From Octopus vulgaris (Eukaryota): a DNA stretch of 64,000 bases. Of the stretch, positions 2,479 to 54,445 are shown in pieces. Each line of letters begins with the position of its first letter. The first letter of the stretch is position 1. The stretch is taken from the NCBI GenBank assembly GCA_951406725.2, contig OX597828.1:19344001-19408000 (forward strand), written 5' to 3'. The notes under the pieces were generated by a model. The model was not told the origin of the DNA, searched no databases, and worked only from the letters and a program-made list of their open reading frames with translations. The position numbers and the translations under genes are program-made.

Positions 2479-4556
2479 ATGGATTGTTTAATGGTATTTG
2501 GAATCATCTATGAAAATAAAACAAAGGTTTCTCTTCTCTATGCCACACATACAATTTCCATTAATGGATTTACATCACACGTCAACATCGAGGCTGAATA
2601 TATAAATGAAAGCCAACACAAAACAGAAGCTAAGTTTGTTTTCCCTGTGGAAGAAGACAGTGCCGTATATAAATTCGAAGCTAAAATTGGTGATGTCCAT
2701 TTAGTTGCCAAATCTAAAGACAAAGATGTTGCCAAAAAGGAATACAAACAAGCTGTAGATAAAGGTCAGTCTGCCATTTTGTTGCGAGAGACAAGTACAT
2801 CTGGCGATATTTTTGAGTATAGTTTAGGTAATATTCCAGCAAATGAAAAGATCCATTTACAAATATGCCTTGTTTCTGAACTTTCTTGTGAAGTTGATGG
2901 GGCAGTGAAATTTCATATGCCATTTGTGCTTAATCCCAGATATGGTCTTAAACCTGCAGATGAAAATTATCAAAATGCACCTAAACCAAAAAAGTTTAGT
3001 TTCAATGCCTCTGTCAACTGGAATTCACAAATCAAAGACATCAAATCAGAACATCCAGTTAAGGTGGATTATCAGGATAACAAGTGTCATGCTACTGTGA
3101 GAATGGCAAAGGAATTCAGTTTTGAGAAAGACCTTCTTCTGCAAGTGTACTATGAAGATGTAGAAAAACCACAAGTAATTTTAGAGAAAGGAGATGAGAA
3201 TTCTAAAGGAATGTTTTCTAAAGATATTATGATGATAAATGTGTTTCCAGAACTTCCGCAAGTAAAACAATCTGCCGCTAATGATTATATTTTTGTTATT
3301 GATCGCTCAGGAAGCATGAGTGGAGAGAAAATTGAAGCAGCAAAAGATACTTTGTTACTTTTCTTAAAAGGTTTACCTTTGGGTTGCTCATTTAATGTTA
3401 TCAGCTTCAATAATGATTTTGAATTTCTGTTCAAAGAAGGAAGCCGAGAATATAGTGAAGATTCTCTGAATGAAGCATTGAAATTCCAGAAAAATCTATA
3501 TGCTTCGGGAGGGACAGAAATTCTTAGTGTCCTGAAATCACTCTCTGACAAAAAAACCATTTCAAAATTTCCATCGACAAGTATTCTTAATAACTGATGG
3601 TGAAGTCTACAACACAAACGATGTCATTCAATTGGTCAAGTCACAAGTAAACAACACACGATACTTCACAATTGGTATTGGTTCTGGAGCTTCTACAGAA
3701 TTGGTCAAAGGTATTGCATGAAACTGAGACTAGTTGCAAAAATGTGAAATTGAATCTTTGTGGTAAAATTGATGATGCAGACTTTTCACTTGATTTTGAA
3801 GCAAGATTGTTGGGACAGAATAATAAGGAAATGACAATACACCGTCTTTGTGTGAAAAGGAAAATACAGGAATTGGAATTAAATAAAGATTTGGGTAAAG
3901 GTGATGAAATAAAATCAGAGATTATCGATTTGGGTACAATGGCTAATTTAGTTTCAAAGTACACAAGTTTTGTTGGTTTGGATGAACATGTTCGATTGGA
4001 TTTTCAAATGGCCTCTATAGCAATTCCAAAATATACAGCCAAGTGTGCTTGTGCTTCTTCGCCAATAGTAAGAATGTTCCGTAAGTTAAAAAAAGTTTTA
4101 CAACAATCAGACCCAATGCCAGTACGTCCGAGAGAAGATATAGCTAGAATGTATACTTCCATAAATAATTCCTTAAGTATAAATGCTGAGAATTCAAGAC
4201 AGTCGCCTCACTCAGACTTAACCTCTTCAAAGTGAACAATTAAGGACATTTTAACAGGTTTGTTTGATCTACAAGCTTTCTCTGGTTTCTGGAATCTAGA
4301 TGATCAATTGGCTCAAGCTCTCAATATTTCTCTTAAGGATCTGAACGATGAGAATCCATCTGTTAGTGATAAAGTATGGGCTACAGGTCTTGTTGTTGCT
4401 GTACTAAGAGAAAAATTAGCTTCCCAGCATTGTGAATGGGAATTAATGGAAAAGAAAGCAATTGATTGGCTGGAATCTCAGAATATACAACCACTGTATT
4501 CAGAGAAGTTACTAGAAAAAGCTACAAACTTCATAAAAAACAAAATGGTTGCCTAG
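2479..4556 (+). pseudogene. VWA5A: VWA5A-like (VIT-vWA) paralog, copy 1, disrupted
   Basis: Acceptor ttttctatacAG ends at 2462 and ATG is at 2479 (MDCLMVFG). ORF pieces 2428-3597, 3672-4235 and 4260-4556 align to copies 2/3. Lesions: an extra A in the run at 3550-3556 (7 A vs 6 in copy 3), a 218-bp deletion at 3714-3717 relative to copy 2, and an in-frame TGA at 4233-4235. Ends at the same FIKNKMVA* terminus. Confidence 0.88.
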
Positions 4557-15837: not shown

Positions 15838-18800
15838 CAGGGGCGTGCACTCTCAGCAATGCAAGGTATGCGCTGCATGCCTTCCTTGTTTCAAAGAAAA
15901 TACGTCCAGTTGTTTTAGAAATATTGTCTCCACTTCGTACATCTGCTTTGATAAATGCTTTTAGAAGATCGCATGATACACACTCCCTCTCTGTCTGTAT
16001 TAGTTTGTCCTTCCTTCCCTCTCTCTCTCTCTATCTTAGTGACTCGATAAATTTATCGCTTGTCATGCGTTGGGAAGACAGCATGAGTCCCTTCTCTCTG
16101 TCTTTGATAGTTTGTCCCTTCTCCCTCTTTCTTTGTTTAAAAGATATACTACGAGGAATGGTCACCCCCTTCTCTCTCAGCGATTCGACAAATTCAGTTT
16201 GGCGTGTCATGCTGTGCTTAGATCGCATATCACGCCTCTGGCTATTTTGACCGGAACACGAGCCGTCCCATAATTCTTGTTTTAGCCAGCTGAAATGTTG
16301 GAATAGCCTTCGCATGTAAGTTTGAAATTTTTTATCCAAAACATCCGTTTGCACTATCATATTTTTAGAAAGTTTTGAAAGCAAAAATATCTACATTATA
16401 TTTCTTATTTCAGAAATAGCTAATTAATCTTAAATTAATTTAACAAAGGGTATTTTTCCGTTTTGTTGAAATTGACTTAAAATTTACGCCGGCGCTTCCA
16501 CGTGGGTCCTTAAATAAGAGCAGCCTTTTTAAAAATGAGTGAAATGTGTGCTATAAACGATATTTTGAGAACTAGTTTTTCTAAAAGGGACTTCGATGGG
16601 AAAAAATTAATTATAAATCGCGGGAGACCAACACCGAATTTACCTAATTTGCGAAGCTACAACAAGAAATTCACGAGACAATTTCAGGTTAATTCGTATG
16701 AAAAGAAGAAATGGTTAACTGGAAGTGTTGCTCTTAATAAATTATTCTGTTGGCCGTGTTTACTTTTTGGCTTAGAAAAAAATGTTTGGAATGATAAAGG
16801 CTATGATGATTTAAATAATTTACATATGGCTATGCTAAAGCACGAGCGTTCTCAAAGGCATATAAAATGTTTGATAGACCTTAAAATATTCGGGAATGTT
16901 CGCATAGACTTACAATTAGATGCACGTAAAAATCAAAGCGTACAACAGCATAATGAGAAAGTTCGACGAAACAGATCCATTCTGCAACGATTGATCGATG
17001 TTGTTATTTTTTTAGGCCTCCAGGAATTATCGTTTCGGGGTCATTTTGAATCTGAAGGCTCTAATAATCGGGGAAATTATAAAGAACTCGTTTATTTGAT
17101 CAGTAAGTATGACAAACAAATGGAAAGTCATTTAGATACAGCTTCTATCTTCACTGGTCTGTCGAACAGAATTCAAAATGACTTGATCGAAGCAATTCAT
17201 AAAGTTATGTTGAATGAGATGCAGAAGGAAATTGACCAAGCTAAGTTTGTTTCTATTCTTGTTGATGAGACATCTGATGTCTCAGCATCTTCACAACTGT
17301 CAACAGTTTTACGTTATGTTACAGAAGACTGTGTGACGAAAGAACGATTTATCGGTTTTTGTGATGTTAGTGCAGATCGATCTGCAAATGCTTTATCTGA
17401 ACATGTTTTTAAATGCATTGAGACGTGGGAATGTGGAAACAAATTGATTGCGCAGACATATGATGGTGCCGCTACAATGGCAGGACAACTAAATGGGTTA
17501 CAGGCAAAAGTAAGAAAGAAATATGAATGTGCGATCTTTATTCATTGTTGTGCCCATATCCTAAATTTAGTTCTTTCACAATCATGCTCTGCTATGAAAG
17601 AATGCAAGATATTTTTTTCTACAATAAATGAACTCAGTACATTTTTTACGAAATCACCGAAAAGGACTAATGCATTAGATAATATTGTTAAAAAAAGATT
17701 TCCGAAAGCAACAGCAACTAGATGGAATTACTCCTCACGTCTTATTATTACCACAAAGGAAAATTATAATTTCATAATCAGCCTTTTTGAACACATCATT
17801 GAAAATCCTGAAGCATGGGATGAGACCACCATAAATTCAGCAATTGGATTCTTACACATTTTAAAAGCTCCTGATTTCTTATTTTTGTTAGAGGTATTCA
17901 GTGACATTTTTTCTTTTACTGACGTCTTATTTAACATACTCCAGAGTAAAAGTCATGACATAGTGTATTGTAAACAGCAAATAGATAAAACTAGAACTGT
18001 ACTCGAAAACAAACTTGATAATTTTTCAGTCTTTTATGATAGGTTAGGGGAAAAATATGGAGTCGATGCAGGAATCGGAATTCAGAGATCCAAGAATATA
18101 TCTATTGATCCCCAACGACATTATAGAACGCTTTATAACAAAATTATAAGTACAATAGTTGACCAAATAAAAGCACAATATTCATCCTTAGAAGAGTTTA
18201 AATTCATGGAACTTTTGAATTTCAACAAAGTTGATGAGTATTGCAAACAATTTCCTGTGGACTCTTTAGATTCTTTAAGAACAACTTATGGCAGATTTTT
18301 TGATGTAATACGATTACAAAGTGATGTATTCAATGAAAGATTTTAAAAAACCAAGTGTAAGTCATTTAATGAGTTACATTAACAGCACTGATCTTGTTGA
18401 AGCTATGCCAGAACTCTTCAATCTGTGCAAGTTGATTTTGACAATTCCGTCTACCACTGCTTCTGTAGAGCGATCCTTTTCTGCATTAAGTAGAATTAAA
18501 ACATACCAAAGAAATGCGACAGGAGAAAGAAGACTGTCTGGGTTAGCACTAATGTCAATTGAAAAAGATTTATTACAAGAATTGATGAAAAGAGAAGATT
18601 TCTATGAAAATGTGATAGATATATTTGCCCAGAAAGATCGAAGAATTGAATTAATTTATAAATGAGCTAAGTAACATTTTAAAACATTAAAAAAAATATA
18701 TATTAAAGAGCATATATTACAGGTTTTGCTTAGTGTTTGTTATAACGTAAGGTTCGACCTTCTTACATCAGTATTGTTTCGCAGGAGAAATGTTTTGATT

Positions 18801-28176: not shown

Positions 28177-29860
28177 CGCCACCCTGATCTTAAAGATCAC
28201 AATCTCTCCGCTCCATGTTGTAGTCCACCATCCAACCGGGAGAGCGCCTTGCTCGTCGAGATCTTCTGAAGCTGGGCTCCTCGTTCTCCCCCTCTCCAGA
28301 ATCATCGTCCGTCAAAGCAACAATCTTGCGAAGGTCCAAGACGTGTCGTGGTGTTCCATCTACGGATACGTTGCTTCTGGAATTGATCGCCGTCACCGTT
28401 CCTCTGCTCCATTGAGACGTACAGCACGCCTTTGGTGGCTTGACCCAGACTTCCTCCCCTATTTTCACGCGAACGGGTCCCTTCTCTTCCTCGTGACCCT
28501 CCGGTACTTTGCTCGGGTGCCTACATTCATATTTGAACACAGCTCTCTGCGGCATAGATTCCTCAGCTTGTCCGGATCGGGGAGACAAGTTGTACCAAAA
28601 AAACTGCTTCAAGTGGCGAAATGTGCCCTCTTTCCGCTATGGCCTTGACTGTCCGATGGTGCCTCTCCACGATCCCGTTACCGCTCAGCCTATACGCTGC
28701 TCTGAACAAGCGTCGCACATTCCACCGATCAAGCATAACCCTCAATGCTTCCGAACGAAACGCTGCCCAGTTGTCCATCAGTAGTTCTTCCACGGGACCT
28801 CTCTCTAAAAATATCCCGTTCAGGATCTGCGCAATCTCGTCAGCAATGCCCGATCTCAACTCCTCCAAATGGCCAGCCGGCCCGGCCCGCAGTCGATCAT
28901 GGAGAGGTACATTTGCTGACGGTAGTGTGTCACATCCACAGCTAGCCTTTTCCAGTCCTGCTCCACGGAAAGGCTTCCCTGTTCATGCCCACACGGAGCA
29001 GGGTTGATGGACTGACACCTGTCACAGCTCCCGACCACCTTCCGGACGCTTCTCCTAGTGACGTCAGCATCAATTTTTTTTGCCAGATACAGGGTCCTGT
29101 CCACACCCAGGTGATGCATATCATGCAGTTTCTTCAGTTCAGAGTCATCCAACCAACACGCCACAGCTATCCCTTTCCGGGCCTCCTCCAGTTCTTCCAA
29201 CCACGCTCTTTTCACCCTGGTCAGTACGTCCGCCCTGTTTTTCTCCGAAGGCTCGAAAACCACGTTCAGCTTCAGTCCGAACTCGGCGATCAATTCACCT
29301 AGAACTCCTAGACGGCGCTTCACTAACATCTCCACAGCACCTTTCGTCCGCACTCTCCTGTCACCGGTGATCACCGATCCTACCCAGCCAAGCACAGTGG
29401 CCGAATCCGTCCGGATTTCAATTGTGCGCAGCCCCCATTTCAAGGCCAAGTTCACCCCTTTCAGCAGCGCGTCTAATTCGGCGACATTGATGTGGTTGAA
29501 ATCATCTGCTTTCCAAAGCCAGGCCACGTCCTCCACCGCAGTGCCTTCGATTGCCAATACCACCCCTATCGCTATACTGCTAGCATCACACCAGACGGTC
29601 CCGCATTTCGTCTTGGGCACATACCAGTTCCCCCCGACCGGGTCTTCCGCTCTTGTCCTCTCTAGGATTTCCTGCATCATCGCCACCGTCCCTTCTCCCA
29701 CCTTGTCGCCCCACCTCTCTCCTTCTGCTCGTCTCTTGGTGTAACTACACGCCGTGCGCAGCCATCCAGCGATCGGGTAGTGACCGACCAACATCCCACA
29801 CACCGAGAACAGCTCTCTCCTGCTGACGCTGGAACTGCATGGCATCTTGGAACTCATTGT
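27898..29860 (-). mobile_element. Ty3/gypsy LTR retrotransposon, 5'-truncated (RNase H, integrase, PPT, 3' LTR)
   Basis: Minus ORFs give WCDASSIAIG, NVAELDA and RTDS (RNase H); HDMHH...CDRC, AVDV, MDN and NGIVER (integrase), with frameshifts near 28860 and 28600. A purine-rich tract abuts an LTR (TG...CA) at 27898-28176. GC-rich relative to host. Confidence 0.88.
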
Positions 29861-30398
29861 TTCAACAACAATAACATACCAACAAGAAACAGTAACAAAT
29901 TCTCCCTCATATCACACTCAGCCATCTCTAAATGAGGAGAATCACACTATATAATGTAGAACTAGATAAGCTGTGCATGTACAGAGATGGGATTGTCATG
30001 GGCAATACACTTTTCCCTATCATTGTGGAGGAACAAGGTCAAGCTGGAGCAAAATATGATTGTCTCTGACAACATTGTCATCATTTGTGTACCATCTCTA
30101 CCTCATTCACCAGCACAAGGGCACAACCAGTGGCAACAGTACTTTTTGTAGTAGTAGGAGTTGTAGCAGCAACAGCAGTGGTAATAGATTCTTCATACTT
30201 CCACATACACATACATGTGCACCTCCAAGAACATTATCAGGATAACTGCTGTCAATGGACCTGGCAATTAGAAGTCATATTTACTTAGCACTATCATCTC
30301 TCGCCAAAAATAAAATAACCTTTTAAATGCAACATGTATATATCATTTCTAAATAAGATGTTTCTCCTTCTATTTTATCTAGCACTTTCATTGCAAAC

Positions 30399-32690
30399 AT
30401 GAATAGACTAATGGTATTTGGAATCATCTGTGAAAATAAAACAAAGGTTTCTCTTCTCTATGCCACACACACGATTTCCATTAATGGTTTTACGTCACAC
30501 GTCAATATCGAGGCTGAATATATAAATGAAAGCCAACACAAGACAGAAGCTAAGTTTGTTTTCCCTGTGGAAGAAGACAGTGCCGTATATAAATTCGAAG
30601 CTAAAATTGGTGATGTCCATTTAGTTGCCAAATCTAAAGACAAAGATGTTGCCAAAAAGGAATACAAACAAGCTGTAGATAAAGGTCAGTCTGCTATTTT
30701 GTTGCGAGAGACAAGTACATCTGGCGATATTTTTGAGTATAGTTTAGGTAATATTCCAGCAAATGAAAAGATCCGTTTACAAATATGCCTTGTTTCTGAA
30801 CTTTCTTGTGAAGTTGATGGGGCAGTGAAATTTCATATGCCATTTGTGCTTAATCCCAGATATGGTCTTAAACCTGCAGATGAAAATTATCAAAATGCAC
30901 CTCAACCAAAAGAGTTTAGTTTCAATGCCTCCGTCAACTGGAATTCACAAATCAAAGACATCAAATCAGAACATCCAGTTAAGGTGGAATATCAGGATAA
31001 CAAGTGTCATGCTACTGTGAGAATGGCAAAGGAATTCAATTTTGAGAAAGACCTTCTTCTGCAAGTGTACTATGAAGATGTAGAAAAACCACAAGTAATT
31101 TTAGAGAAAGGAGATGAGAATTCTAAAGGAATGTTTTCTAAAGATATTATGATGATAAATGTGTTTCCAGAACTTCCGCAAGTAAAACAATCTGCCGCTA
31201 ATGATTATATTTTTGTTATTGATCGCTCAGGAAGCATGAGTGGAGAGAAAATTGAAGCAGCAAAAGATACTTTGTTACTTTTCTTAAAAAGTTTACCTTT
31301 GGGTTGCTCATTTAATGTTATCAGCTTCAATAATGATTTTGAATTTCTGTTCAAAGAAGGAAGCCAAGAATATAGTGAAGATTCTCTGAATGAAGCATTG
31401 AAATTCCAGAAAAATCTATTTGCTTCGGGTGGGACAGAAATTCTTAGTGCACTGAAATCACTCTCTGTCAAAAAACCATTTCAAAATTTCCATCGACAAG
31501 TATTCTTAATAACTGATGGTGAAGTCTACAACACAAACGATGTCATTCAATTGGTCAAGTCACAAGTAAACAACACACGATACTTCACAATTGGTATTGG
31601 TTCTGGAGCTTCTACAGAATTGGTCAAAGGTATTGCCCGCGCAGGGAAGGGACAAGCAGAGTTTGTGATGACAAATGACAACCTTAAGGCAAAAGTTATG
31701 CGTTTATTAAAATTGTCAAAGCAACCATTTGTATCTTCGGTTTGTCTCTCTGCTAAACATGGTGAAAACAATAAAGAATTATCCTTTATTTCAGTTCCAG
31801 AAAGGCTGCCATGTATTTTCAGTGAAGAAAAATTAATCCTGTATCTAGTTTTGCATGAAGCTGAGACTAGTTGCAAAAATGTGAAATTGAATCTTTGTGG
31901 TAAAATTGGTGAAACAGACTTTTCACTTGATTTTGAAGCAAGTCTGTTGGGACAGAATAATAAGGAAATGACAATACACCGTCTTTGTGTGAAAAGGAAA
32001 ATACAGGAATTGGAATTAAATGAAGATTTGGGTAAAGGTGATGAAATAAAATCAGAGATTATCGATTTGGGTACAATGGCTAATTTAGTTTCAAAGTACA
32101 CAAGTTTTGTTGGTTTGGATGAACATGTTCCAGAATGTATGCCAATTATGCGTTTAGCAAAACCACAATTATACAGTATGCTTTATGTCGATGCTGAAGG
32201 ATTGGACGACATTGGTAAAGAAATGGATGATGGAGAAATATGTTTGGATTTATCTGATGTTGATTTTGTGGATTCTTCTGGTGCTGATTCTGTGGATTCA
32301 AGTTGCATGCCTCCCTCATTTAAAGTACCACGTGTGACTGACGAGGAATCCTTTATGTCTCTTGGGTCAACAAATAAAGATATTTTAACATGTTTGGTTG
32401 GTCTACAAGCTTTCTCTGGTTTCTGGAATCTAGACGATCAGTTGGCTCAAGCTCTCAATATTTCTCTTAAGGACCTGAACAAAGAGAATCCATCTATTAG
32501 TGATAAAGTATGGGCTACAGCTCTTGTTGTTGCTGTACTAAGAGAAAAATTAGCTTCCCAGCATTGTGAATGGGAATTAATGGAAAAGAAAGCAATTGAG
32601 TGGCTGGAATCTCAGAATATACAACCAATGAATTCAGAGAAGTTACTAGAAAAAGCTACAAACTTCATAAAAAACAAAATGGTTGCCTAG
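30399..32690 (+). CDS. VWA5A: von Willebrand factor A domain-containing protein 5A-like (VIT + vWA + variable linker + PARP4-like C-terminal helical domain), copy 2, 763 aa, single coding exon
   Basis: Uninterrupted 763-aa ORF. VIT motifs (EAKFVFP, AVYKFEAKIG, LGNIPA), MIDAS DRSGS...SGGTE...ITDGE, RYFTIGIG, LVSKYTSFV, and C-terminal LQAFSGFW...WATAL...WELMEKKAIEWL. Polypyrimidine acceptor AG at 30381-30382; AATAAA at 32841. Confidence 0.92.
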   Translation: MNRLMVFGIICENKTKVSLLYATHTISINGFTSHVNIEAEYINESQHKTEAKFVFPVEEDSAVYKFEAKIGDVHLVAKSKDKDVAKKEYKQAVDKGQSAILLRETSTSGDIFEYSLGNIPANEKIRLQICLVSELSCEVDGAVKFHMPFVLNPRYGLKPADENYQNAPQPKEFSFNASVNWNSQIKDIKSEHPVKVEYQDNKCHATVRMAKEFNFEKDLLLQVYYEDVEKPQVILEKGDENSKGMFSKDIMMINVFPELPQVKQSAANDYIFVIDRSGSMSGEKIEAAKDTLLLFLKSLPLGCSFNVISFNNDFEFLFKEGSQEYSEDSLNEALKFQKNLFASGGTEILSALKSLSVKKPFQNFHRQVFLITDGEVYNTNDVIQLVKSQVNNTRYFTIGIGSGASTELVKGIARAGKGQAEFVMTNDNLKAKVMRLLKLSKQPFVSSVCLSAKHGENNKELSFISVPERLPCIFSEEKLILYLVLHEAETSCKNVKLNLCGKIGETDFSLDFEASLLGQNNKEMTIHRLCVKRKIQELELNEDLGKGDEIKSEIIDLGTMANLVSKYTSFVGLDEHVPECMPIMRLAKPQLYSMLYVDAEGLDDIGKEMDDGEICLDLSDVDFVDSSGADSVDSSCMPPSFKVPRVTDEESFMSLGSTNKDILTCLVGLQAFSGFWNLDDQLAQALNISLKDLNKENPSISDKVWATALVVAVLREKLASQHCEWELMEKKAIEWLESQNIQPMNSEKLLEKATNFIKNKMVA

Positions 32691-33314: not shown

Positions 33315-34889
33315 GTCATCTAAATTGTAACCTTCCATCAAAATATTATTCTAATTTATGTCCCAAACACCAGTTTAGTAATCCTTTCTACTGGAAGTAC
33401 AAGGCCTCAAATTTGTGGGAAGGGATTAAGTCGATGACATCGACCCCAGTACGTAACTGGTACTTATTTGATTGACCCCGAAAGGATGATGAGCAAAGTC
33501 GACCTTGGTAGAATTTGAACTTAGAATGTGATGACAGATGAAATACCGCAAAGCATTTTGCCCAGGGTGCTAAAGATTCTGCCAGCTTGCTGCCCTAAAA
33601 CACCAGCTTAATATTGACAAAGTTATATCACTAAATTCTTCATTATTTTGAAAATTAATTGGAACAAAGGCAATGCACTTCAGCAGAGATATGGTAGAGA
33701 ATTAGTTAGAGATATTTAAACAGAGTTCTCAGCATTTAACACTACTAAATTGAGGAAAACAATCATTATTTAGCTGTAGGTTCACATTGTCTTTGGTCAT
33801 TATATGTTTCTTTACTGGCCACACAGGGCTGAAATACAGAGGGGAAAAATACAAAGTAGAGCTTTTCTTTTGGGGAAGAAGAAGAAAAGAAGAAAAAAAA
33901 GTTGGTCGAATTCCGATCAAAAGGGATCGTGAAAAAAAAAATGGTAGTGGGAGTGTAATCAATAGGGATCGTGTATCACAGAAATGTCAATGTAAAAAGA
34001 GAAAACAGATTAAGTTTATCTATGGAAAGAAAAGCCTACAGAAAAGACCACGGAAACCTTGGGCAATAGTGTCATGCAAAAATAAACACATTACAGTAAG
34101 TGGCTCTCTTTTCCCCTTTTTTTTTGGTTCGTAGGATTATGCTCAAGCTGGCTCTGTCATTCACACATGCCATCCTTGCTACATTCACCCATCTTTTTTT
34201 TAAACATTCACTAGACAAAACTTCCCTCTCTACTCTCACCTTCCTCTTCAAGTAATACTTAAAGAAGTTGATGAGAGATTCACCAGAGAGGAAAGTGTTT
34301 GTCTCTAGACCATTCAGTCATGTCCACCATACACATTCTTTCACTATAGCCACAAGTACAATGAAAATGGTTCTTCCTTCCAGTTTCAAGGAAGGTGGCA
34401 CGACAATATTCACGATAGACTCGGTTGATAAACTGACTCATCTTTTGTCATTAGAAATTCTTTAAAGAAACAGGTTTTAATAAATAAATATCTGAGACAA
34501 ATAATTGTATAAAACTCTATCCTACGTTTATCACATCTGTATTTTATCTTGGTTCATCATTACTATCATTCTTATGATATTAGAAACTATTTGAAAAGCC
34601 TTGACATTTATGTGTACATCTTATTCTGGATTTCTTTTAAGAGATTTGCTCTACTCACATCTTCAAGTCAGTGCCCCAGTATGGTCGCAGTTTAATAACT
34701 GAAACAAGTAAAAGAATGAAAATTAAGATGAATCCATTTTAGTTTCATGATGGGATAATATAGAACAAACACTAAAGACCAAAAGTACAACTTGTTGGGT
34801 AGTGTTGTAAGACACAGGAATATGTTGGAAGAGTTTTATCACAAAACTTATGGAATCCATATTCAGTGTTAGCAAAGTCAAATGTCTTC
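33315..34889 (+). repeat. Segmental duplication partner of 1-1495
   Basis: Direct near-identity with window positions 1-1495. Confidence 0.95.
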
Positions 34890-36160: not shown

Positions 36161-39153
36161 TCTGTATATATAAAAGGCAGGATGTGTGTGTGTGTGTGTA
36201 CGTGAATGTTGTTTATGCACGTCCACAAATTAGCACTCATGTCACTCCAATTATAGGAGGACATTCGTTGAATTATTTTTCTCTAGGCACCTGCAGGTAG
36301 TAGTAAAAGTCGATTTTCAACCTTAACTTTTACCAATTTTGAAGTTTGCTAACATGAGTTAAGTCCCTTTTTGCTATAGCGAAGTGAAAATGTGTGTGTG
36401 TGTGTGTGTGAGGTAGAGAAAAGTTGTGTTCTGATGTATGTGTGTGTGTGTGCGTGCGTGTGAGGGAGAGATAGAGAAAATGACAGCGTTCACCAAAAAT
36501 AGAAATGTAAAAAATTTTTTTCCTTAAACACGAGATATAGTTTTCAAATTTAGGATGTTTTTAAAAGACGCTATTTTTTATAATCAGATTATATATACTT
36601 TCTCACACAACAATTAAAATTTATTTATTTTAAATCGTTCATCTTTCTCCCCACCCCCTCTCACACACACACATTACTTTGGGTGCGAAAGAGATTTGTT
36701 TTTATTTTACGCAGAGAAAAAAGTGTTTTGTTGAGAATCCATTTATTTAACAACATAGAAGCAAAGAGGTAGGTAACAATTTGTTAGTGAATTACACAAT
36801 ATAAATGGGTAAAATTTCTGGGGCTTCACCACACCCCACCCCACCCATTTCTCGGACCACAAAAAGGGTTTTGTAGCATATTAGGAGGCCAGGGTAGTTG
36901 ATTCCCTGCAAAAAATCCAATTTTTTTTTCTTAGTGAAAATTGTGCAAGTGTTGTCTAAAAATTTGCCTGGAGTTTTTCATGGTAAATTTGAGATTAAAA
37001 AAAAATGTTTTCCATATTCTTAATCTCCATATTTTCCCACATACATTGAAAAATATATGGTGAAATTTCCGAGGCTTCCACCACACACCACCCCGTTTTT
37101 CAGACCACAAAAAGGGTCTCATAGCATATTAGTAGTTGATTCCATGCAAAAAATCCAATTTCTTTTTTTCTTAGTGAAATTCGGGCAAGTGTTAATTTAA
37201 AAATTTAATCTAAAACCTTTTTCCATTCATTTCTGTTTATGAAATTCTCTGTACGTAATTTTGCTTTCTCAGTGGTCAAGGCAAATGATGGCTGGCAAAG
37301 CAACAGTGCCCTAATGCTGACATTGGATACAATGACCTGATCTACAATAATGCGCTGATTGAAATCGAGGATGCCCTGCTCAAAATGGGTGGGGCAGCAT
37401 CGAACACATTTAGTTTGCCATCCTCATTGTGACAGGACGTTAACACACTCCCACCAAAGTTACTTCTGGAGTTGTCGTATGATGACGATGGCCTTGCAGA
37501 GTACACGAGAGTAAATGAATCGAAATTGCTCCCTGATCAGAGGCTGGTGTACGAAACTGTCATCAGTGCCATTGAAAAACAGGCAGGCGGCATTTTTTCC
37601 TCAATGCTGCTAGAGGTACTGGCAAATCCTTTGTAACACAATTAATACTTGCTAAGATTCGTCACGAGAAACAAATTTCATTAGATGTTGCTTCCTCAGA
37701 AATCGCTGCTACGTTATTGCCGGGAGGTAGGACAGCGCACTCAGCATTCAAGCTGCCTTTACATTTGGCGAGGGCCAAGGTTCCTTCTTGCAACATTGGC
37801 AAAAATTCAGCTGAAGTTCTTAGACTGTACCGTCTCATTGTATGGGACGAATGCACAATGACCAATAAGGGTGCCCTTGAGGCACTGGACCGGTCACTGA
37901 AAAGTATCAGGGATTCTACAGCTTCTATGAGTGGTGTAACTCTATTGCTTTCAGATTTCTGGCAAACCCTTTCTATCATCCCTAAAGGGAGCCGGGCTGA
38001 TAAGTGTGCGCATGCCTAAAGTCATCCGTGTTGTGGCTCCAGGTTACGACCTTAAGCCTAAGTACAAACATGCATGTGCACTTGCTTGGTGATAGCACAT
38101 CTGCAGCATTTGCTTAAGACATTTTAGCCCTTGGAGAAGGCAAGGTCCCTCAGAATGATAGGGGTGACATATCCATCTCTGAAATGTGCAACACCATGGA
38201 CAACCCTTCCGATCTTTTGGAAAAGTGTTCCTTAATCTGGAAAGTAATTATGCAGACGTCAATTGGTTCAGTGAAAGAACCATCCTGGCCCCCACAAACG
38301 TAGCTGTCAATGCTATCAACGACCAGCTCATAAGCCAAATTCCGGGTGAGGAGAGCATCTACAAATTGATTGACCGGACCTCTGACCACCAAGAAATTGT
38401 CAGTTACCCTGTCAAGTTTCTCAACTCGTTGGAGCTAGCAGGGCTTCCACTTCACATTCTTAGGCTAAGGGTTGGATGCCCAATTATGCTAATCAGAAAC
38501 TTGCTTCCGCCTAAACAGTGCAATGAGACCCACTTAGTAATCAAGTCCCCGACGCCCCTCTTGACTGAGGCCACCATTGTTACAGGATGTGGGAGGGGTG
38601 AAAATGTTTTCATTTCAAGGATGCAGCTTTATCCCTCGGTGTTGGACATGCCTTTTGACTTCTGCAGATCGCAGTTCCCAGTGAGACCATGCTTCGCCAT
38701 GTCCATCAACAAATCCCATGGCCAAACACTGTCAGTGGCAGGTATCCATTTGGGGTTTTCCATTCAATCAGGATAAAAAAATTGATAAACCGATTCCTTA
38801 TAGGATTTCTCACTAAAATTGGCTACACCCCATTTTCAACCAAAACTTTTACCAATTTTGACATATTTTACTCAAACTTGATGCCAGTATTACTTAGGAC
38901 TCATAGGATCTTTGAATGCTTTAAGTTCTCAAAAAAAAAAAAACAATCGATGAGTGGAAATAATCGATAAACCGATTCCTTATAGGATTTCCCAATCAAA
39001 TTGCCTGCAACCTATTTTCAGCCAAAAGTTTACCAATTTCAACGGATTTCTCTCAAATTTGATGTCGATGTCACTTATTTTGGTTTCAAATAAAGTGCTT
39101 GATCACTTAATAATCCTAACTTAATCCCAGCCAACGCCGGGCTATACTGCTAG
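36161..39153 (+). mobile_element. Helitron (non-autonomous, with decayed PIF1-family helicase segment)
   Basis: 5' A|TC and 3' hairpin cccagccaacgccggg plus CTAG|T, with no TSD. Empty site catatttata|tatgaat at 2350/2351 in the paralogous segment. Confidence 0.92.
37290..38755 (+). pseudogene. Helitron PIF1-like helicase remnant
   Basis: GTGKS, GGRTAHSAFKLP, LIVWDECTM, ILAPTN, LRLRVGCPIMLIRNL and QFPVRPCFAMSINKSHGQTL occur across several frames with stops. Confidence 0.88.
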
Positions 39154-39287: not shown

Positions 39288-41795
39288 ATGGATTGTTTAA
39301 TGGTATTTGGAATCATCTGTGAAAAGAAAACAAAAGTTTCTCTTCTCTATGTCACACACACGATTTCCATTAATGGATTTACGTCACACGTCAACATCGA
39401 GGCTGAATATATAAATGAAAGCCAACACAAGACAGAAGCTAAGTTTGTTTTCCCTGTGGAAGAAGACAGTGCCGTATATAAATTTGAAGCTAAAATTGGT
39501 GATGTCCATTTAGTTGCCAAATCTAAAGACAAAGATGTTGCCAAAAAGGAATACAAACAAGCTGTAGATAAAGGTCAGTCTGCCATTTTGTTGCGAGAGA
39601 CAAGTACATCTGGCGATATTTTTGAGTATAGTTTAGGTAATATTCCAGCAAATGAAAAGATCCGTTTACAAATATGCCTTGTTTCTGAACTTTCTTGTGA
39701 AGTTGATGGGGCAGTGAAATTTCATATGCCATTTGTGCTTAACCCCAGATATGGTCTTAAACCTGCAGATGAAAATTATCAAAATGCACCTAAACCAAAA
39801 GAGTTTAGTTTCGATGCCTCTGTCAACTGGAATTCACAAATCAAAGACATCAAATCAGAACATCCAGTTAAGGTGGAATATCAGGATAACAAGTGTCATG
39901 CTACTGTGAGAATGGCAAAGGAATTCAGTTTTGAGAAAGACCTTCTTCTGCAAGTGTACTATGAAGATGTAGAAAAACCACAAGTAATTTTAGAGAAAAG
40001 AGATGAGAATTCTAAAGGAATGTTTTCTAAAGATATTATGATGATAAATGTATTTCCAAAACTCCCACAAGTAAAACAATCTGCCGCTAATGACTATATT
40101 TTTGTTATTGATCGCTCAAGAAGCATGAATGGAGAGAGAATTAAAGCAGCAAAAGATACTTTGCTACTTTTCTTAAAAAGTTTACCTTTGGGTTGCTCAT
40201 TTAATGTTATCAGCTTCAATAATTATTTTGATTTTCTGTTCAGAGAAGGAAGCCGAGAATATAGTGAAGATTCTCTGAATGAAGCTTTGAAATTCCAGAA
40301 AAATCTATATGCTTCAGGTGGGACAGAAATTCTTGATGCACTGAAATCACTCTCTGACAAAAAACCATTTCAAAATTTCCATCGACAAGTATTCTTAATA
40401 ACTGATGGTGAAGTCTACAACACAAACGATGTCATTCAATTGGTCAAGTCACAAGTAAACAACACACGATACTTCACAATTGGTATTGGTTCTGGAGCTT
40501 CTACAGAATTGGTCAAAGGTATTGCCCGTGCAGGGAAGGGACAAGCAGAGTTTGTGATGACAAACGACAACCTTAAGGCAAAAGTTATGCGTTTATTAAA
40601 ATTGTCAATGCAACCATTTGTATCTTCGGTTTGTCTCTCTGCTAAACATGGTGAAAACAATAAAGAATTATCCTTTATTTCAGTTCCAGAAAGGCTGCCA
40701 TGTATTTTCAGTGAAGAAAAATTAATCCTTTATCTAGTTTTACATGAAGCTGAGACTAGTTGCAAAAATGTGAAATTGAATCTTTGTGGTAAAATTGGTG
40801 AATCAGACTTTTCACTTGATTTTGAAGCAAGTCTGTTGGGACAGAATAATAAGGAAATGACAATACACCGTCTTTGTGTGAAAAGGAAAATACAGGAATT
40901 GGAATTAAATGAAGATTTGGGTAAAGGTGATGAAATAAAATCAGAGATTATCGATTTGGGTACAGTGGCTAATTTAGTTTCAAAGTACACAAGTTTTGTT
41001 GGTTTGAAGCAATGTATTCCAGAATGTATGCCAAAGTCCTGCATGGTTTCTTCTTCACCACCACCACCACCTCAACCTCTACAAGCTTCTAGTTGCCCAG
41101 CCAATCAGTCCGATCTTGATTTAGAAGAAGACTTTGAATATATAAATGTTGATTGTGTGGATTCTGGTGCTGATTTTGGGCATTCTGACTTTGAGTTTGT
41201 CGATTTAAATTGCTTGTCTCAGACATTTAGAAGACCATCCAGTATGAGTGATGAGAAATCGTTTCTCACTTCTGGGACAAAAAATAAAGAGATTTTACCA
41301 TGTATGATGGGGGAAGCAAATCAGAATTGTTATTTGGAAAATGTAGTTGACAATTCTGGGATTTTTTATAAACATGATTCTGGTACTGATTCTGTGGGTT
41401 CCAATTGCTTGTCTCGGACATTTAGAAGATCATTAAATGTGAGTGATGTAGAATCCTTTATGTCTTCTGAGACAACAATTAAGAACATTTTAACATGTTT
41501 GGTTGACTTACAAGCTTTCTCTGGTTTCTGGAATCTAGACGATCAATTGGCTCAAGCTCTCAATATTTCTCTTAAGGATCTGAACAAAGAGAATCCATCT
41601 GTTAGTGATAAAATATGGGCTACAGCTCTTGTTGTTGCTGTACTAAGAGAAAAATTAGCTTCCCAGCATTGTGAATGGGAATTAATGGAAAAGAAAGCAA
41701 TTGTTTGGCTGGAATCTCAGAATATACAACCACTGAATTCAGAGAAGTTACTAGAAAAAGCTACAAACTTCATAAAAAACAAAATGGTTGCCTAA
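39288..41795 (+). CDS. VWA5A: VWA5A-like, copy 3, 835 aa, single coding exon
   Basis: ORF 39225-41795. The likely start is ATG 39288, after acceptor ttttctatacAG ending at 39271 (same 5' junction as copy 1). MIDAS DRSRS; longer linker; AATAAA at 41951. Confidence 0.92.
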   Translation: MDCLMVFGIICEKKTKVSLLYVTHTISINGFTSHVNIEAEYINESQHKTEAKFVFPVEEDSAVYKFEAKIGDVHLVAKSKDKDVAKKEYKQAVDKGQSAILLRETSTSGDIFEYSLGNIPANEKIRLQICLVSELSCEVDGAVKFHMPFVLNPRYGLKPADENYQNAPKPKEFSFDASVNWNSQIKDIKSEHPVKVEYQDNKCHATVRMAKEFSFEKDLLLQVYYEDVEKPQVILEKRDENSKGMFSKDIMMINVFPKLPQVKQSAANDYIFVIDRSRSMNGERIKAAKDTLLLFLKSLPLGCSFNVISFNNYFDFLFREGSREYSEDSLNEALKFQKNLYASGGTEILDALKSLSDKKPFQNFHRQVFLITDGEVYNTNDVIQLVKSQVNNTRYFTIGIGSGASTELVKGIARAGKGQAEFVMTNDNLKAKVMRLLKLSMQPFVSSVCLSAKHGENNKELSFISVPERLPCIFSEEKLILYLVLHEAETSCKNVKLNLCGKIGESDFSLDFEASLLGQNNKEMTIHRLCVKRKIQELELNEDLGKGDEIKSEIIDLGTVANLVSKYTSFVGLKQCIPECMPKSCMVSSSPPPPPQPLQASSCPANQSDLDLEEDFEYINVDCVDSGADFGHSDFEFVDLNCLSQTFRRPSSMSDEKSFLTSGTKNKEILPCMMGEANQNCYLENVVDNSGIFYKHDSGTDSVGSNCLSRTFRRSLNVSDVESFMSSETTIKNILTCLVDLQAFSGFWNLDDQLAQALNISLKDLNKENPSVSDKIWATALVVAVLREKLASQHCEWELMEKKAIVWLESQNIQPLNSEKLLEKATNFIKNKMVA

Positions 41796-48609: not shown

Positions 48610-49950
48610 CCGGAAATTCTTGTTGAACTTTCCATAAAATCCTCGGAAATTTCCATGAAGTTTTCAACCAATTTTCCAGGAAGTTATACAATCCTCGGAA
48701 CTTTCTAGGAAGTTTTCGACCAATTTTCCAGGAAGTTAGAAAATCCTCGGATCTTTTCAGGACGTTTTCGACCAATTTACAAGGAAGTTAGATAATCCTC
48801 GGAACTTTCCAGGACGTTTCCCGACCAATTTCCAGGAGGTTGGAAAATTCTCGGAACTTTCCAGGAAGTTTTCGACCAATTTACAAGGAAGTCAGAAAAT
48901 CCTCGGAACTTTCCAGAAAGTTTTCGACCAATTTACAAGGAAGTTAGAAAATCATCGTAACTTTCCAGGAAGTTTTCGATCAATTTCCAGAAATTTACAA
49001 AAATCTTCTGAACTTTCCAGGAAGTTTTCGACCAATTTACAAGGAAGTTAAAAAATCCACGGAACTTTCCTGGAAGTTCTCGACCAATTTACAAGGAAGC
49101 TAGAAACTCCTCGGAACTTTCCAGGAAGTTTTCGACCAATTTACAAGGAAGTTAGATAATCCTCGGAACTTTCTAGGAAGTTTTATACCAATTTACACGA
49201 AGTCAGAAAACCCTTGGAATTCCCATAAAATCCACGGGACTTTCCAAGAAGTTTTCGATCAATTTTCCAGGAAGTACGGGAATCCCCGGAACATTCCATG
49301 AATTCATCGGAACATTCCAGGAAGTTTCTGAATATTTTCCCATGAATTTGGGGAATCACCGGGACTTTCCATGAAATCCTCGGAACTTCCCAGGAAGTTT
49401 CCAAGAAGTTTAGGAAATTTCCTGAAGCTTCCATGAAATCCTCGGAACTTTCTGACAAATTTTTCAGGATGTTTTGGAATCCGCGGAATTTTCCACGAAA
49501 TCCCCGGAACTTTCCAGGAAGTCTCCGACCAACTTTCCAGGAAATTGGTGGAATCCCCGATACTTTCCATTGAATCGTCGGTACTTTCCAGGAAATTTCC
49601 GACCGATTATCTAGGAAGTTGGGGAAATCCTGGAACTTTCCATGAAATCCGCGAAACTTCCAAGGAAGTTTCCGACCAATTTTACAGAAAGTTGAGGATA
49701 TCCCCATAACTTTCCATGAAATCCTCGGAACTTCCAATGAATTTTCCTACAAATTTTTGCAGCAAGTTGGGGAATCTCGGAACTTACCATGAAATCCTCG
49801 AAACTTCCCAGGACGTTTCCGGCCAATTTTCTTGGGTGTTGGGTAATACCTTGAACTTTCCATGAAATCCTTGGAACTTTCAAGGAAGTTTCCGACCAAT
49901 TTTCTAGGAATTGGGGAATCTCCGCAACTTTCCATGAAATCTTCGGAACT
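48610..49950. repeat. 52-bp satellite (consensus ~aaaatcctcggaactttccaggaagttttcgaccaatttacaaggaagttag), block 1
   Basis: cgacc recurs at 48873 and 48925. The distal part shifts to a longer variant containing tttccatgaaatcctcgg. Confidence 0.92.
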
Positions 49951-51129
49951 GACTAAAAGCGCGACTGTGGTTATATGATCGCAAAGCGTTAACGCTTATG
50001 TATCTTTTTGTTGCGATAAAATGATTTGTCAAGGTTTGAGAAATGACAGAACCATCAGTTTGTTTATAAAATATTGCAGAAGGTTGAGTCAGGATGAACA
50101 AATGCGAGGAGTGTCATGGAATTTGTAATGTCTGTATAATAGGTACACACTCGGAAAAAAGCGTATGGACAAAACTTGAGACAGATAGTGGTAGACAGAA
50201 GGCTTAGATGTTTAGTGTAGAGCAAGGAAACTCTTGTGATTTAGCAGACCTCATTGCGAGGAAAAACACAACTGTGGTTACACGACCTCAAAATGTTCGC
50301 GCTGTTTTTGTGGAGATAACATGATTTATCTGAGTAACAGCAGTTACCAATAAAAGTGAATAATCGGTTTATGTGATCTTCATAAAAGATTTCAGAGAAC
50401 TGTTTGCTGTTAACATGAGAAACACGGAATTTGTCTGTAATGCTAGTATGATACGTAGATGCTCGGAAAAAGTAGACCGCCTAACATTTTTGAGACAGTT
50501 ACTAGAAGGCAGAAGGCCTAGATGTTTCATACGTAGAACAAGAAAGAATTTAAATGTCCTCGGTGGCGTGGAGAGAGAGGAGACTGGTATGCATGGGCGT
50601 CTACTGGTCTTCCATAAACAACCTTGCCCTGACTTGTGTCTAGGAGGGTAACTTTCTAGGTGCAATCCCATGGTCAGTCATGACCGAAGGGGGTCTCAGT
50701 ATATTATCATTTGAGTAAGGCGGCGAGCTAGGAGAATTAGTAACGCTTCGGATAAGATGCTTAGTGTTATCACGTCCAGCATTAGATTTTGAGTTCGGCT
50801 TTGCCTATCTTTCCTTCGGGCTCAATAATTTATGTACCAGCTGCGCACTGGGGTCAACCCGAATATCCGAGTTCCCCTTTCCAAGTATTGAGCTTATAGT
50901 AAAAAGGATTATTATTACTATTGTGAGGTTGGTAGTATTGATAGTAGTGCTCATGGTGGTAGTGATGATGATGATGATGATGATGAAGAGGAGGATAATG
51001 GCGTTGATGGCGATGATGATAAAAGTTATGAAAGCATGCATGATGCAAGGAAGGGAAAAAGAAAAGAAGGTAAGCGATGACGCCTTTGGTGCTAATAATG
51101 CTTGTGCTGTGGCTGCTGCTGTTGCTGAT

Positions 51130-51186
51130 AATGACGACAACGACGACGATGACGACGACGACGATGATGATGACGACGACGACGAT

Positions 51187-51218
<32 letters not shown>

Positions 51219-51260
51219 CGACGACGATGTTGATGATGATAATGAGGACGACGGTGATGA
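51130..51260. repeat. (GAC/GAT)n trinucleotide repeat
   Basis: Directly visible; produces a poly-Asp artefact ORF. Confidence 0.9.
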
Positions 51261-51768
51261 TAGAAGACCAAAACGCTAATGATATTAAAATGTAGGGCTA
51301 ATTTATCGGCAAGAAATGCGATACGGTAACAAAATAATGAGTGATTTGTAGAACAATTAACTGAGACAAGCAAACAAATATGTAATAACGACCATAATAA
51401 TAATAATAATGATGATGATGATGATGATGATGAGGATGATGAGGATGATGATGAGGTTTATGATAATCACGGTAATAATGATAATGATAATAGCAATAAC
51501 AAACTGTAACAAACATAAAGCCCCAACCAAAACATACAACACTTTAATATGAACGATTAGAAAATTAGAAAATAGCAGTTAATGGCGTCATTTAAAGGAT
51601 GTTCTTTGTTTATTGAAATAAGGACAGAGGAAAGAATGTGAAGTGGAAGGAAGGTAGGCAGGAAGGTAGGAAGGAAGAAAGGAAGGGGGGAGTAAAGAAG
51701 TGAGAGAAAAAGAGAGAAACGAAGATGTGAATGTTAGTCATTTAATACAGAGGGATGGAGAATGCAAT

Positions 51769-51799
<31 letters not shown>

Positions 51800-51949
51800 T
51801 GAGGGCGAGAGAGGGAAGAGGGAAGAGGGAGGGACAGAGAGTATGTGAGAGTGAGATGGAGAAAAGTAAAGAAAGAAGTGCTGGAAAAAAAAATTTCCAA
51901 AGAATGTTTGAATGAGCGAAGGAGAGAAAAGTAATGTAAATTGATAGAT

Positions 51950-54445
51950 GTGAGACATTTTCATCAGACATTTTCCTCAAACATTTTCATCAGATATTTT
52001 TATCAAACATTTTCATCAAACATTTTTATCAAACATTTTCATCAAACATTTTTCATCAGATATTTTCAGCAAGCAGTATCATTACACATTTTCAACAGAA
52101 ATTTTCATCAGACATTTTCATCAAACATTTTCATCAAACATTTTCAGCAGACATTTTTATCAAACATTTTCATCAGATATTTTTATCTAACATTTTCATC
52201 AAACATTGTCATCATACATTTTCATCAGACATTTTCATCAAACATTTTCATCAGACATTTTCATAAACCATTTCATCAAATATTTTCATCAGATATTTTC
52301 ATCAAACATTTTTATCAATCATTTCATCAAACATTTTCAGACATTTTCATCAGATATTATCGTCAAACAATTCATCAGATATTTTCATCAGACATTTTCA
52401 TCAAACATTTTCATCAAACATTTTCATCAGACACTTTCATCAAACATTTTTATCAAACATTTCATCAAACATTTTCATCATTGTTATCAGACATTTTCAT
52501 CAGACATTTTCATCAAATATTTTCATCAAACATTTTCATCAGACATTTTCATCAAACATTTTCATCAAACATTTTCATCATACATTTGCATCAAAAATTG
52601 ATAGATGTGAGAAAGAAACAAAGTGTGAAATCATCAAACCTTTTCATCAGACTTTTTTATCAAACATTTTCATCAGACATTTTCCTCAAACAATTTCATC
52701 AAACATTGTTATCAGACATTTTCATCAGACATTTTCATCATATGATGAATGACATTTTTATCAGATATTTTCATGAAACATTTTCATCTGATATTTTCAT
52801 CAAGCATTTTCATCGAACATTTTCATCAGATATTTTCATCAAATATTTTTTCTCAAACATATCAAGCATTTTCATCAGACATTTTCATCAGATATTTTCG
52901 TCAAACAAATTCATCCCACATTTTCATTAAACATTTTCATCAGATATTTTCATCAAACATTTTCATCAAACATTTGTATCAGACATTTTCATCAAACATT
53001 TACATCAAACATTTTCATCAAATATCTTTATCAAACATTTTCATCAAACATTTTTCATCAGATATTTTCATCAAACATTTTCAGCAAACATTTTCACATT
53101 TTCATCAAACATTTTCATCATACATTTTCATCAAAAATTGATAGCTGTTAGAAAGAAACAAAGTGTGAAATCATCAAACATTTTCATCAGACATTTTTAT
53201 CAAACATTTTCATCAGACACTTTCCTCAAACATTTTCATGAGACATTTTTATCAAACATTTTCATCAGACATTTTTATCAAACATTTTCATCAAATATTG
53301 TTATCAGACATTTTCATCAGATATTTTCATCAGACATATACATCAAACATTTTCATCAGACATTTTTATCAAACATTTTCATCAAATATTGTTATCAGAC
53401 ATTTTCAGACATTTTCATCATACATTTTCATCAAACATTTTCATCAGACATTTTCATAAAGCATCTTCATCAGACATTTTCATCAGATATTTCATCAAAT
53501 ATATTCAGACATCTTTATCAGATATTTTTGTCAAACACTTTCATCAGACATATTCATCAAACATTTTCATCAGACATTTGCATCAAACATTTTCATCAAA
53601 CATTTTCATCATACATTTGCATCAAAAATTGATAGCTGTTAGAAAGAAACAAAGTGTGAAATCATCAAACATTTTCATCAGACATTTTTATCAAACATTT
53701 TCATCAGACATTTTTATCAAACATTTTCATCAAATATTGTTATCAGACATTTTCATCAGACATTTTCATCATACATTTTCATCAAACATTTTCATCAGAC
53801 ATTTTCATAAAGCATCTTCATCAGACATTTTCATCAGATATTTCATCAAATATATTCAGACATCTTTATCAGATATTTTTGTCAAACACTTTCATCAGAC
53901 ATATTCATCAAACATTTTCATCAGATATTTTCATCAAACCGTTTAATCAAACATTTTATCAGATATTTCATCAGACATTTCCATCAAATATTTTCATCAA
54001 ACATTTTCATCAGATATTTTCATCAAACATTTTCATCAAACATTTTCATCATACATTTGCATCAAACATTGCATCAAACATTTTCATTAGTTATATTCAT
54101 AAACATTTTCATCATTGTTATCAGAGATTTTCATTAGACACTTTCATCGGACATTTTCATCAAATATTTTCATCAGACATTTTCATCAAACATTTTCATC
54201 AGACATTTTTATTAAACGTTTTCTTCAAACATTTTCATCAGACATATTCATTAGACATTTTGCATCAGACATTTTGCATCAGACATTTTGCATCAGACAT
54301 TTTCATCAAACATTTTCATCAGACATTTTCATCAAACATTTCATCAAGCATTTTCAGCAGAGATTTTTATCAAATATTTTCATCAGATATTTTTATCTAA
54401 CATTTTCATCATTTTCATCAAAAGTTTTCATCAGATATTATCATC
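51950..54445. repeat. 13-bp satellite (cattttcatca[a/g]a)n with ~0.5-kb higher-order units
   Basis: The monomer is repeated across 2.5 kb. The spacer aaaaattgatag(a/c)tgt(g/t)agaaagaaacaaagtgtgaaatc recurs at ~52593, ~53133 and ~53624. Confidence 0.95.

Follow-up and report, generated by a model that had tools for sequence, protein, structure and literature searches.

The locus examined here raises the question of why tandem genes should encode proteins whose folded parts are almost the same and whose connecting linkers are not, and of what the caspase-type motifs in those linkers signify. The window, by which we mean the whole 64-kb stretch of DNA that was analysed, holds three tandem VIT-vWA gene copies, of which copies 2 and 3 are single open frames. 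A preliminary description had read clustered DxVD-S motifs in the linkers of these two copies (the hyphen before the last residue marks the cleavage position) as making the proteins caspase substrates, decoys or switches. Taken more widely, the evidence favours a variable bait linker of a general kind over a caspase-specific device. At stake is the working of VWA5A/BCSC-1, which is conserved, is a candidate tumour suppressor in humans and is described as poorly understood in its mechanism (PMC12540739, PMC10539598).

Three tandem genes of the VWA5A family

2479..4556 (+), copy 1, broken paralog, its linker (3978-4232) basic
30399..32690 (+), copy 2, intact single-ORF VWA5A-like gene of 763 aa, 100% to P0005
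32115..32378 (+), hypervariable acidic linker of copy 2, residues 573-660
32379..32687 (+), helical C-terminal domain (CTD) of copy 2, predicted to dock on vWA helices
39288..41795 (+), copy 3, intact VWA5A-like gene of 835 aa, whose linker is longer and contains an internal duplication

Copy 2 is laid out as a VIT domain, a vWA domain with an intact MIDAS, a linker and the helical CTD. Pfam gives VIT and vWA as the sole matches in copies 2 and 3, with the VIT domain (PF08487) at the N-terminus at E 3.7e-28 and 2.8e-28 in the two intact copies and the vWA domain (PF13768) at E~9e-24. The MIDAS (DxSxS...T...D) is intact in both, reading DRSGS/DRSRS, GGTEI and TDG, and its residues are invariant or nearly so across the aligned family. 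Pfam found neither PARP catalytic nor BRCT domains in copies 2 and 3, whose 763- and 835-aa ORFs have a stop bounding them on the upstream side, and no ITIH-type C-terminal domain at E<=0.1, the CTD being of the VWA5A type; membership of the ITIH and PARP4 groups was rejected on the absence of these domains. As to a signal peptide, the alignment places the N-terminus at the family start, without extension. Among homologs that carry a name, the closest (87-93%) are proteins labelled VWA5A-like from Octopus vulgaris and O. sinensis, followed by those of Argonauta and then of bivalves, amphioxus and vertebrates. By sequence, the window genes are tandem Octopus paralogs of the known VWA5A family.

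Copy 1 is damaged by a frameshift near 3551-3570, a deletion of ~218 nt near 3717 and an in-frame TGA at 4233-4235. Its linker had been described as offering Arg/Lys-rich sites, and by count it is basic, with 13 K/R vs 8 D/E in 85 aa; intact relatives of this basic-linker type are O. sinensis P0009 and P0010. The flanks upstream of copies 1 and 3 (1-1495 vs 33315-34889) are 95-98% identical, the mark of a segmental duplication, and the protein starts with MDCL in copies 1 and 3 and with MNRL in copy 2. The window also contains transposon remnants at 16514-18346 (+; DUF4371, which we take to be hAT-like), 28856-29911 (-; a DUF7047/RVT_3/integrase-zinc retroelement piece), 38183-38776 (+; a Pif1 2B fragment) and 58682-59419 (-; an RT fragment), together with satellite arrays at 48636-56144, in which a 13-nt unit repeated 194 times (51955-54446) has 52/73-nt arrays on either side.

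Caspase-type motifs in the linkers of copies 2 and 3

32181..32195 (+), LYVD-A, weak site without P4 Asp, copy 2
32245..32292 (+), 24-nt tandem microduplication (79% identity), source of the copy 2 site pair
32262..32276 (+), DFVD-S, caspase-3/7-type site, repeat unit 1, copy 2
32286..32300 (+), DSVD-S, caspase-3/7-type site, repeat unit 2, copy 2
41151..41165 (+), DCVD-S, sole DxxD-G/S/A site of copy 3
41182..41501 (+), 125-nt internal duplication in the copy 3 linker (41182-41306 / 41377-41501)
41193-41207, EFVD-L, poor site, copy 3
41340-41354, NVVD-N, poor site, copy 3

Checked letter by letter, the motifs quoted earlier for copies 2 and 3 are all present where they had been placed, and they differ in quality. 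DFVD-S, DSVD-S and DCVD-S are good sites because they match the caspase-3/7 preference DEVD-G/A/S (PMC13071377), whereas EFVD-L and NVVD-N lack both the P4 Asp and a small P1' residue, and LYVD-A is weak and absent from close homologs. Sequencing contigs across 32107-32308 showed 0 differences in 4/4 runs from four studies, and the copy 2 motifs are therefore not an assembly error. Contigs from other samples carry six differences at 32316-32362, just downstream of DSVD-S, which amount to four amino-acid changes and agree with the P0006 type. Other linker types also appear in these contigs, among them the end of a copy-1-type linker that lacks the stop. Paralogs or alleles outnumber those in the window.

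The reading of these motifs as a cluster does not stand. The copy 2 pair comes from one 24-nt microduplication, copy 3 has one site, and under local shuffles P=0.14 for copy 2 (0.12-0.16) and 0.30 for copy 3 (0.27-0.30). When the whole copy 2 linker is shuffled, its 2 sites compare with 0.38 expected (P=0.05); the whole-linker shuffle (36 vs 13) was dropped in favour of local shuffles, being unfit as a null because acidic residues cluster, with a ~2x excess of D-D pairs whichever spacing between 0 and 5 is taken. Judged on the window alone, the sites of copies 2 and 3 are within chance. The copy 3 linker also has a 21-nt repeat related to the 24-nt repeat of copy 2, and its unit orthologous to the DSVD-S of copy 2 reads DSVG-S at 41388, with P1 lost; a further repeat unit, DFGH-S, has lost P1 as well. 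The VDS(S)GAD core, singled out earlier as one of few shared segments, is indeed common to copies 2 and 3, but it is not isolated, since the entire C-terminal third of the linker is shared.

Linker variation and site retention in octopods

Among five Octopus proteins the body is 94.6-98.3% identical and the CTD 91-99%, and the linker 15-59%. Between copies 2 and 3, the body has a pN/pS of 0.34 and the CTD one of 0.26, and the ratio reaches 0.56, 1.11 and 1.33 in the three short pieces of the linker that can be aligned; synonymous divergence is higher in these pieces (0.17-0.28 vs 0.05). Such values would fit bodies that have been homogenised and linkers that are older and free-running, and a linker pN/pS near 1 would be as compatible with relaxation as with selection. 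In O. sinensis P0007 the start is of the copy-1 type and the end of the copy-2 type, and linkers therefore appear to recombine.

A DxxD-G/S/A site is found in 7/10 octopod-type linkers (copies 2 and 3, P0006, P0007, P0016, P0125 and P0011). The DSVD-S of copy 2 is kept in P0006 and P0007 and reads DFVD-S in O. bimaculoides P0016, the DCVD-S of copy 3 reads DSVD-S in its homolog P0125, and Argonauta P0011 has DEMD-S at a non-homologous position. No site occurs in the octopod basic linker, in both tested 40-aa linkers, or in the cephalopod-clade linkers P0017, P0018 and P0020. Acidic Octopus linkers keep the site, near background identity (31/70 and 92/136 columns invariant). Across the family, linkers range from 32 to 448 aa in length.

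Motif frequency across VWA5A linkers

Motif counts were made by sequence cluster and compared with local shuffles of the linkers (12-residue shuffles in the animal-clade counts). Set 1 comprised 93/98 aligned linkers in 70 clusters; set 2 comprised 104/140 new representatives, with 32 left out for want of an anchor and 4 as too like set 1. In set 1 the plain motif DxxD-[GSA] counted 17.6 vs 11.5 expected (P=0.02), and a refined motif, D-x-[VILMCFTAW]-D-[GSA], whose P2 class was picked after seeing this set, counted 11.2 vs 4.5 expected. In set 2 the result for the plain motif was not reproduced: it counted 16.5 vs 13.3 of 100 (P=0.16), and DxD-[GSA], a control, was no lower (18.5 vs 13.3). The refined motif stood there at 10 vs 5.2 (P=0.04).

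Animal and other linkers were told apart by a FastTree tree in which named sequences of set 1 served as anchors, and an 8-member subclade including Paramuricea was excluded from the clade counts. In animal-clade linkers without octopods the refined motif counted 14.2 vs 5.7 of 104 clusters, and in the new animal-clade sequences alone 6.0 vs 1.5 of 41 clusters (P=0.004). Clustering the animal set at 70, 60 and 50% body identity gave observed/expected counts of 11.8/3.6, 8.7/2.5 and 6.2/1.3. Over all these animal counts the motif occurs at 2.5-4.8x the local-shuffle expectation. Reversed, shifted and P1-Glu control motifs showed no significant rise in animal linkers; the refined motif had no excess in the other, non-animal clade (4.0 vs 3.6 of 54) and counted 1 vs 3.6 in the remaining loops and the tails of these proteins (11,097 aa). 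In comparisons made within VWA5A proteins, there is a family-wide motif excess in animals. The site is carried by 17.2 of 110 animal clusters (~16%).

The test suggested earlier, of DxxD-[GSA] enrichment in mollusc linkers over shuffled controls, gives no excess of the refined motif in the named bivalves (2.0 vs 1.9 of 19 clusters) and 7.0 vs 4.4 for the plain motif (P=0.10). A third set, mostly fish, gave 0 vs 0.4 of 17 and has no statistical power. A bacterial set of 54 post-body segments from 79 loci, with a CTD in 5 only, showed a mild rise of the motif (4.0 vs 2.3) and of the controls alike, and is a weak control; the full body-linker-CTD layout occurs in bacterial homologs L001, L003, L004, L006 and L009 (Acidobacteriota and MAGs). 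Searches at longer length returned tandem-fused gene models and no PARP4 set, with linkers lacking power, and those at shorter length returned 2 proteins. Fish, anemone and frog gene models (P0267-P0276) combine several tandem VWA5A copies whose linkers are all different, and tandem expansion with linker diversification is therefore not limited to octopus.

Inserts and mimics in other linkers

Pfam, run on 20 hand-picked proteins, gave linker-insert matches in 7, one of them weak: synaptobrevin in P0032, P0203 and weakly P0038, ubiquitin in P0047, actin in P0215, FG-nucleoporin repeats in P0148 and FHA in P0247. SNARE-like linkers are those of P0032, P0049, P0038, P0084, P0203 and P0222, and such stretches occur in bivalves and in one 30%-identical distant member. 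YSPTSPS-like heptads were seen by eye in the P0200 linker. LRGG or RLRGG, resembling a ubiquitin tail, is present in P0047, P0072, P0077, P0103, P0110 and P0271, from mussel, marsupial, amphioxus, lizard and tilapia homologs. The count of LRGG in animal linkers is 3.5 vs 0.4 of 110 clusters, an excess that shrinks to 0.2 vs 0.1 at 50% clustering. LRGG linkers are a possible deubiquitinase bait. An enrichment of LxGG in set 2 was rejected, GGxL being raised equally. Single-domain inserts could be mis-joined gene models; inserts at a shared linker position look like integrated decoys.

Predicted disorder of the linker and docking of the CTD

AlphaFold2 models copy 2 with a confident body and CTD and with pLDDT <50 over most of 578-659, as expected of a disordered linker. 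The full-chain pTM of 0.83 is above the ~0.75 share of the chain taken by the body, and the CTD therefore appears to be placed. When the body and the CTD were folded in trans, the score was 0.66 vs 0.00 for the best control, with >=92% of contacts in common between runs and a partner pLDDT of at least 83; the same docking mark is reached by 51/78 solved vs 2/108 mismatched microbial pairs and by 39/65 solved vs 2/126 mismatched eukaryotic pairs. This pass may be memory, because the solved member 9e5c contains both parts. The predicted interface lies on vWA helices 290-300, 326-330 and 430-438, distant from the MIDAS, and brings K297/S298 into contact with Q670/E724/W725/K731; these six core residues are conserved in 91-98 of 98 proteins.

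A docked CTD on the vWA domain is thus predicted; such docking, with autoinhibition, has been proposed for Dictyostelium Vwa1 and human VWA5A (PMC10539598, available text). This runs against the earlier suggestion that cleavage would separate the VIT-vWA body from the CTD: because the CTD is predicted to be docked, a cut in the linker would nick the tether rather than simply part the halves, and departure of the CTD would depend on its affinity for the vWA domain.

Folded alone, the CTD (modelled from window positions 32370-32687) reaches pLDDT 94. Its best fold match is 9e5c, the C-terminal part of a VIT-vWA family chain (Z 11.9, rmsd 2.5, 96 aligned), and it also resembles the vault-bound C-terminal domain of PARP4 (Z 6.6, rmsd 3.4, 92 aligned); a sequence search of the PDB with the CTD gave no match, nor did Foldseek at E<=0.001. 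Lower fold matches (Z 5-6.5) are the thioester-domain helices of C4, CD109, A2M and TEP1 and terpene-cyclase/prenyltransferase barrels. Likeness to thioester-domain and cyclase helices may reflect a common helical arrangement. The conserved Q-x3-G-x-W of the CTD presumably resembles a QW repeat.

Proposed mechanism and alternatives

We tentatively propose, with confidence a little short of even, that the linker is a variable bait loop, that the octopus DxVD-S motifs are its caspase-directed version and that caspases are one of several triggers. Near-identical VIT-vWA bodies would be tethered to a small helical CTD by a hypervariable, predicted-disordered linker in which the DxVD-S motifs are candidate caspase-3/7 bait sites. 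A caspase cut is expected to loosen the CTD docked on the vWA domain, and the loosened CTD would relieve autoinhibition, so activating the protein to sense or trap proteases in the manner of ITIH4; the activated body could then engage in MIDAS-dependent trapping or signalling. Paralogs may widen the range of proteases by swapping linkers, acidic with DxVD-S in copies 2 and 3 and basic in the copy-1 type, and in other organisms the ubiquitin-, SNARE-, actin- and FG-like linkers may play the same part. What survives of the proposed caspase substrate is therefore a predicted potential, resting on the match to preference, the disordered loop, the octopod carriers and the animal enrichment, and not a device specific to caspases. 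Counting against the bait loop are the post hoc P2 class, the unreplicated plain motif, the bivalves without excess, the ~16% of carriers and the loss in copy 3 of the site orthologous to that of copy 2.

It is also possible, though we consider it rather unlikely, that VWA5A as a whole is an ancient cytosolic bait-and-trigger system. Its linker would mimic the targets of proteases or effectors (caspase sites, ubiquitin LRGG tails, SNARE motifs, actin, FG repeats), the attackers would be host and pathogen proteases or effectors, and a cut would unlatch the CTD, with the enzyme trapped or a signal raised.

The simplest alternative holds that the linker needs length and flexibility only and drifts by slippage, duplication and recombination, so that an acidic patch yields DxxD-S by chance and caspase cuts are bystander events. 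Much of the above is what such a spacer would give: microduplications that account for the site pair, local-shuffle probabilities within chance in both copies, the twofold D-D enrichment, a linker pN/pS of ~1, lengths differing as much as 32 to 448 aa, site-free 40-aa linkers in octopods and bivalves without motif excess. Drift of this kind does not account for a full motif at 2.5-4.8x expectation when its reversed, shifted and P1-Glu variants are not raised, an excess confined to the animal clade and to the VWA5A linker, and repeated SNARE, ubiquitin and LRGG inserts are hard to explain by it. We regard a neutral spacer as possible and on the unlikely side; if it is correct, there is nothing more at the locus than a usual cluster of paralogs whose spacer drifts.

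Two more specific readings strike us as improbable. A dedicated apoptotic switch, in which effector caspases cut a conserved site and release the CTD as a signalling fragment, is consistent with the optimal-type sites in 7/10 octopod-type linkers, with a CTD that folds alone and resembles the vault-bound domain of PARP4, and with the finding that C-terminal fragments, when expressed, perturb development in Dictyostelium (PMC10539598, available text); against it, neither the position nor the presence of the site is conserved, as the share of animal carriers and the loss in the orthologous unit of copy 3 illustrate, and the CTD is predicted to remain docked via a highly conserved interface. We likewise give little weight to a linker that acts without proteolysis, either as a fast-changing binding or decoy surface for pathogen or host proteins, as proposed for PARP4 exon 30, or as an acidic, Ser-rich phosphorylation patch tuning CTD autoinhibition. 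The motifs do lie in Ser/Asp-rich patches, whole-domain inserts (actin, FHA, ubiquitin) can serve as binding or modification decoys, and the linker occupies the same position as the PARP4 exon; the directional P4-P1' pattern is left unexplained, the reverse motif not being enriched.

Comparison with known systems

Within the literature covered, from which subscription journals largely fall outside, we found no report of VWA5A linker cleavage or bait function, and the available part of the BCSC-1 interactome paper does not mention caspases. Executioner caspases of oyster cut DEVD (PMC3923871, available text), and the majority of caspase substrates are bystanders (PMC7225963, available text). 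Human VWA5A (BCSC-1) and Dictyostelium Vwa1 share with the octopus proteins the VIT-hybrid-vWA body, an intact MIDAS, a disordered linker and a helical CTD of ~100 aa predicted to dock away from the MIDAS (PMC10539598, available text); they differ in that the octopus paralogs lie in tandem, consist of one ORF each and have exchanged linker types. The Dictyostelium Vwa1 paper, in its available text, proposes autoinhibition by the CTD but not linker cleavage as its trigger (PMC10539598). A cleavable bait linker over a predicted autoinhibitory CTD would offer a directly testable mechanism for VWA5A, and the octopus paralogs, with bodies 96-98% identical and different linkers, are a natural experiment.

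ITIH4 has a homologous VIT-vWA body (E 9.5e-32) and a MIDAS, and directly after them a region that is unstructured, long and variable. The octopus linker starts where the profile match to ITIH4 stops, at residue 612, just ahead of the protease-susceptible region 633-713, which is long and species-variable and serves as bait for MIDAS-dependent trapping (PMC7793589, available text). ITIH4 differs in being a plasma protein with another C-terminal domain, and trapping has been demonstrated for ITIH4, whereas in octopus VWA5A it would follow from our proposal. PARP4 is the closest solved sequence relative of the octopus genes (E 8e-96), and their linker fills the gap between PARP4 residues 1190 and 1558, where exon 30 lies; this exon is disordered and positively selected, and its authors read it as a pathogen-binding surface (PMC4038475, available text). 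Both proteins thus have a fast-evolving disordered region between the body and a C-terminal domain of like fold, although the octopus genes lack PARP and BRCT domains and positive selection has been demonstrated for PARP4 alone. The bait-linker reading would link the bait region of ITIH4 with the positively selected exon of PARP4.

Further likeness is found outside the VIT-vWA scaffold. The bait region of alpha-2-macroglobulin is variable and disordered and turns its cleavage by a protease into a response, and the NLRP1/CARD8 protease tripwires likewise use a variable disordered bait to this end. The scaffolds of these proteins are different, with the octopus CTD weakly like thioester-domain helices (Z 5-6.5). 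If the bait-and-trigger proposal is correct, VWA5A would be to the inside of the cell what ITIH4 and alpha-2-macroglobulin are elsewhere, and in octopus tandem duplication and the swapping of linkers would have diversified it.
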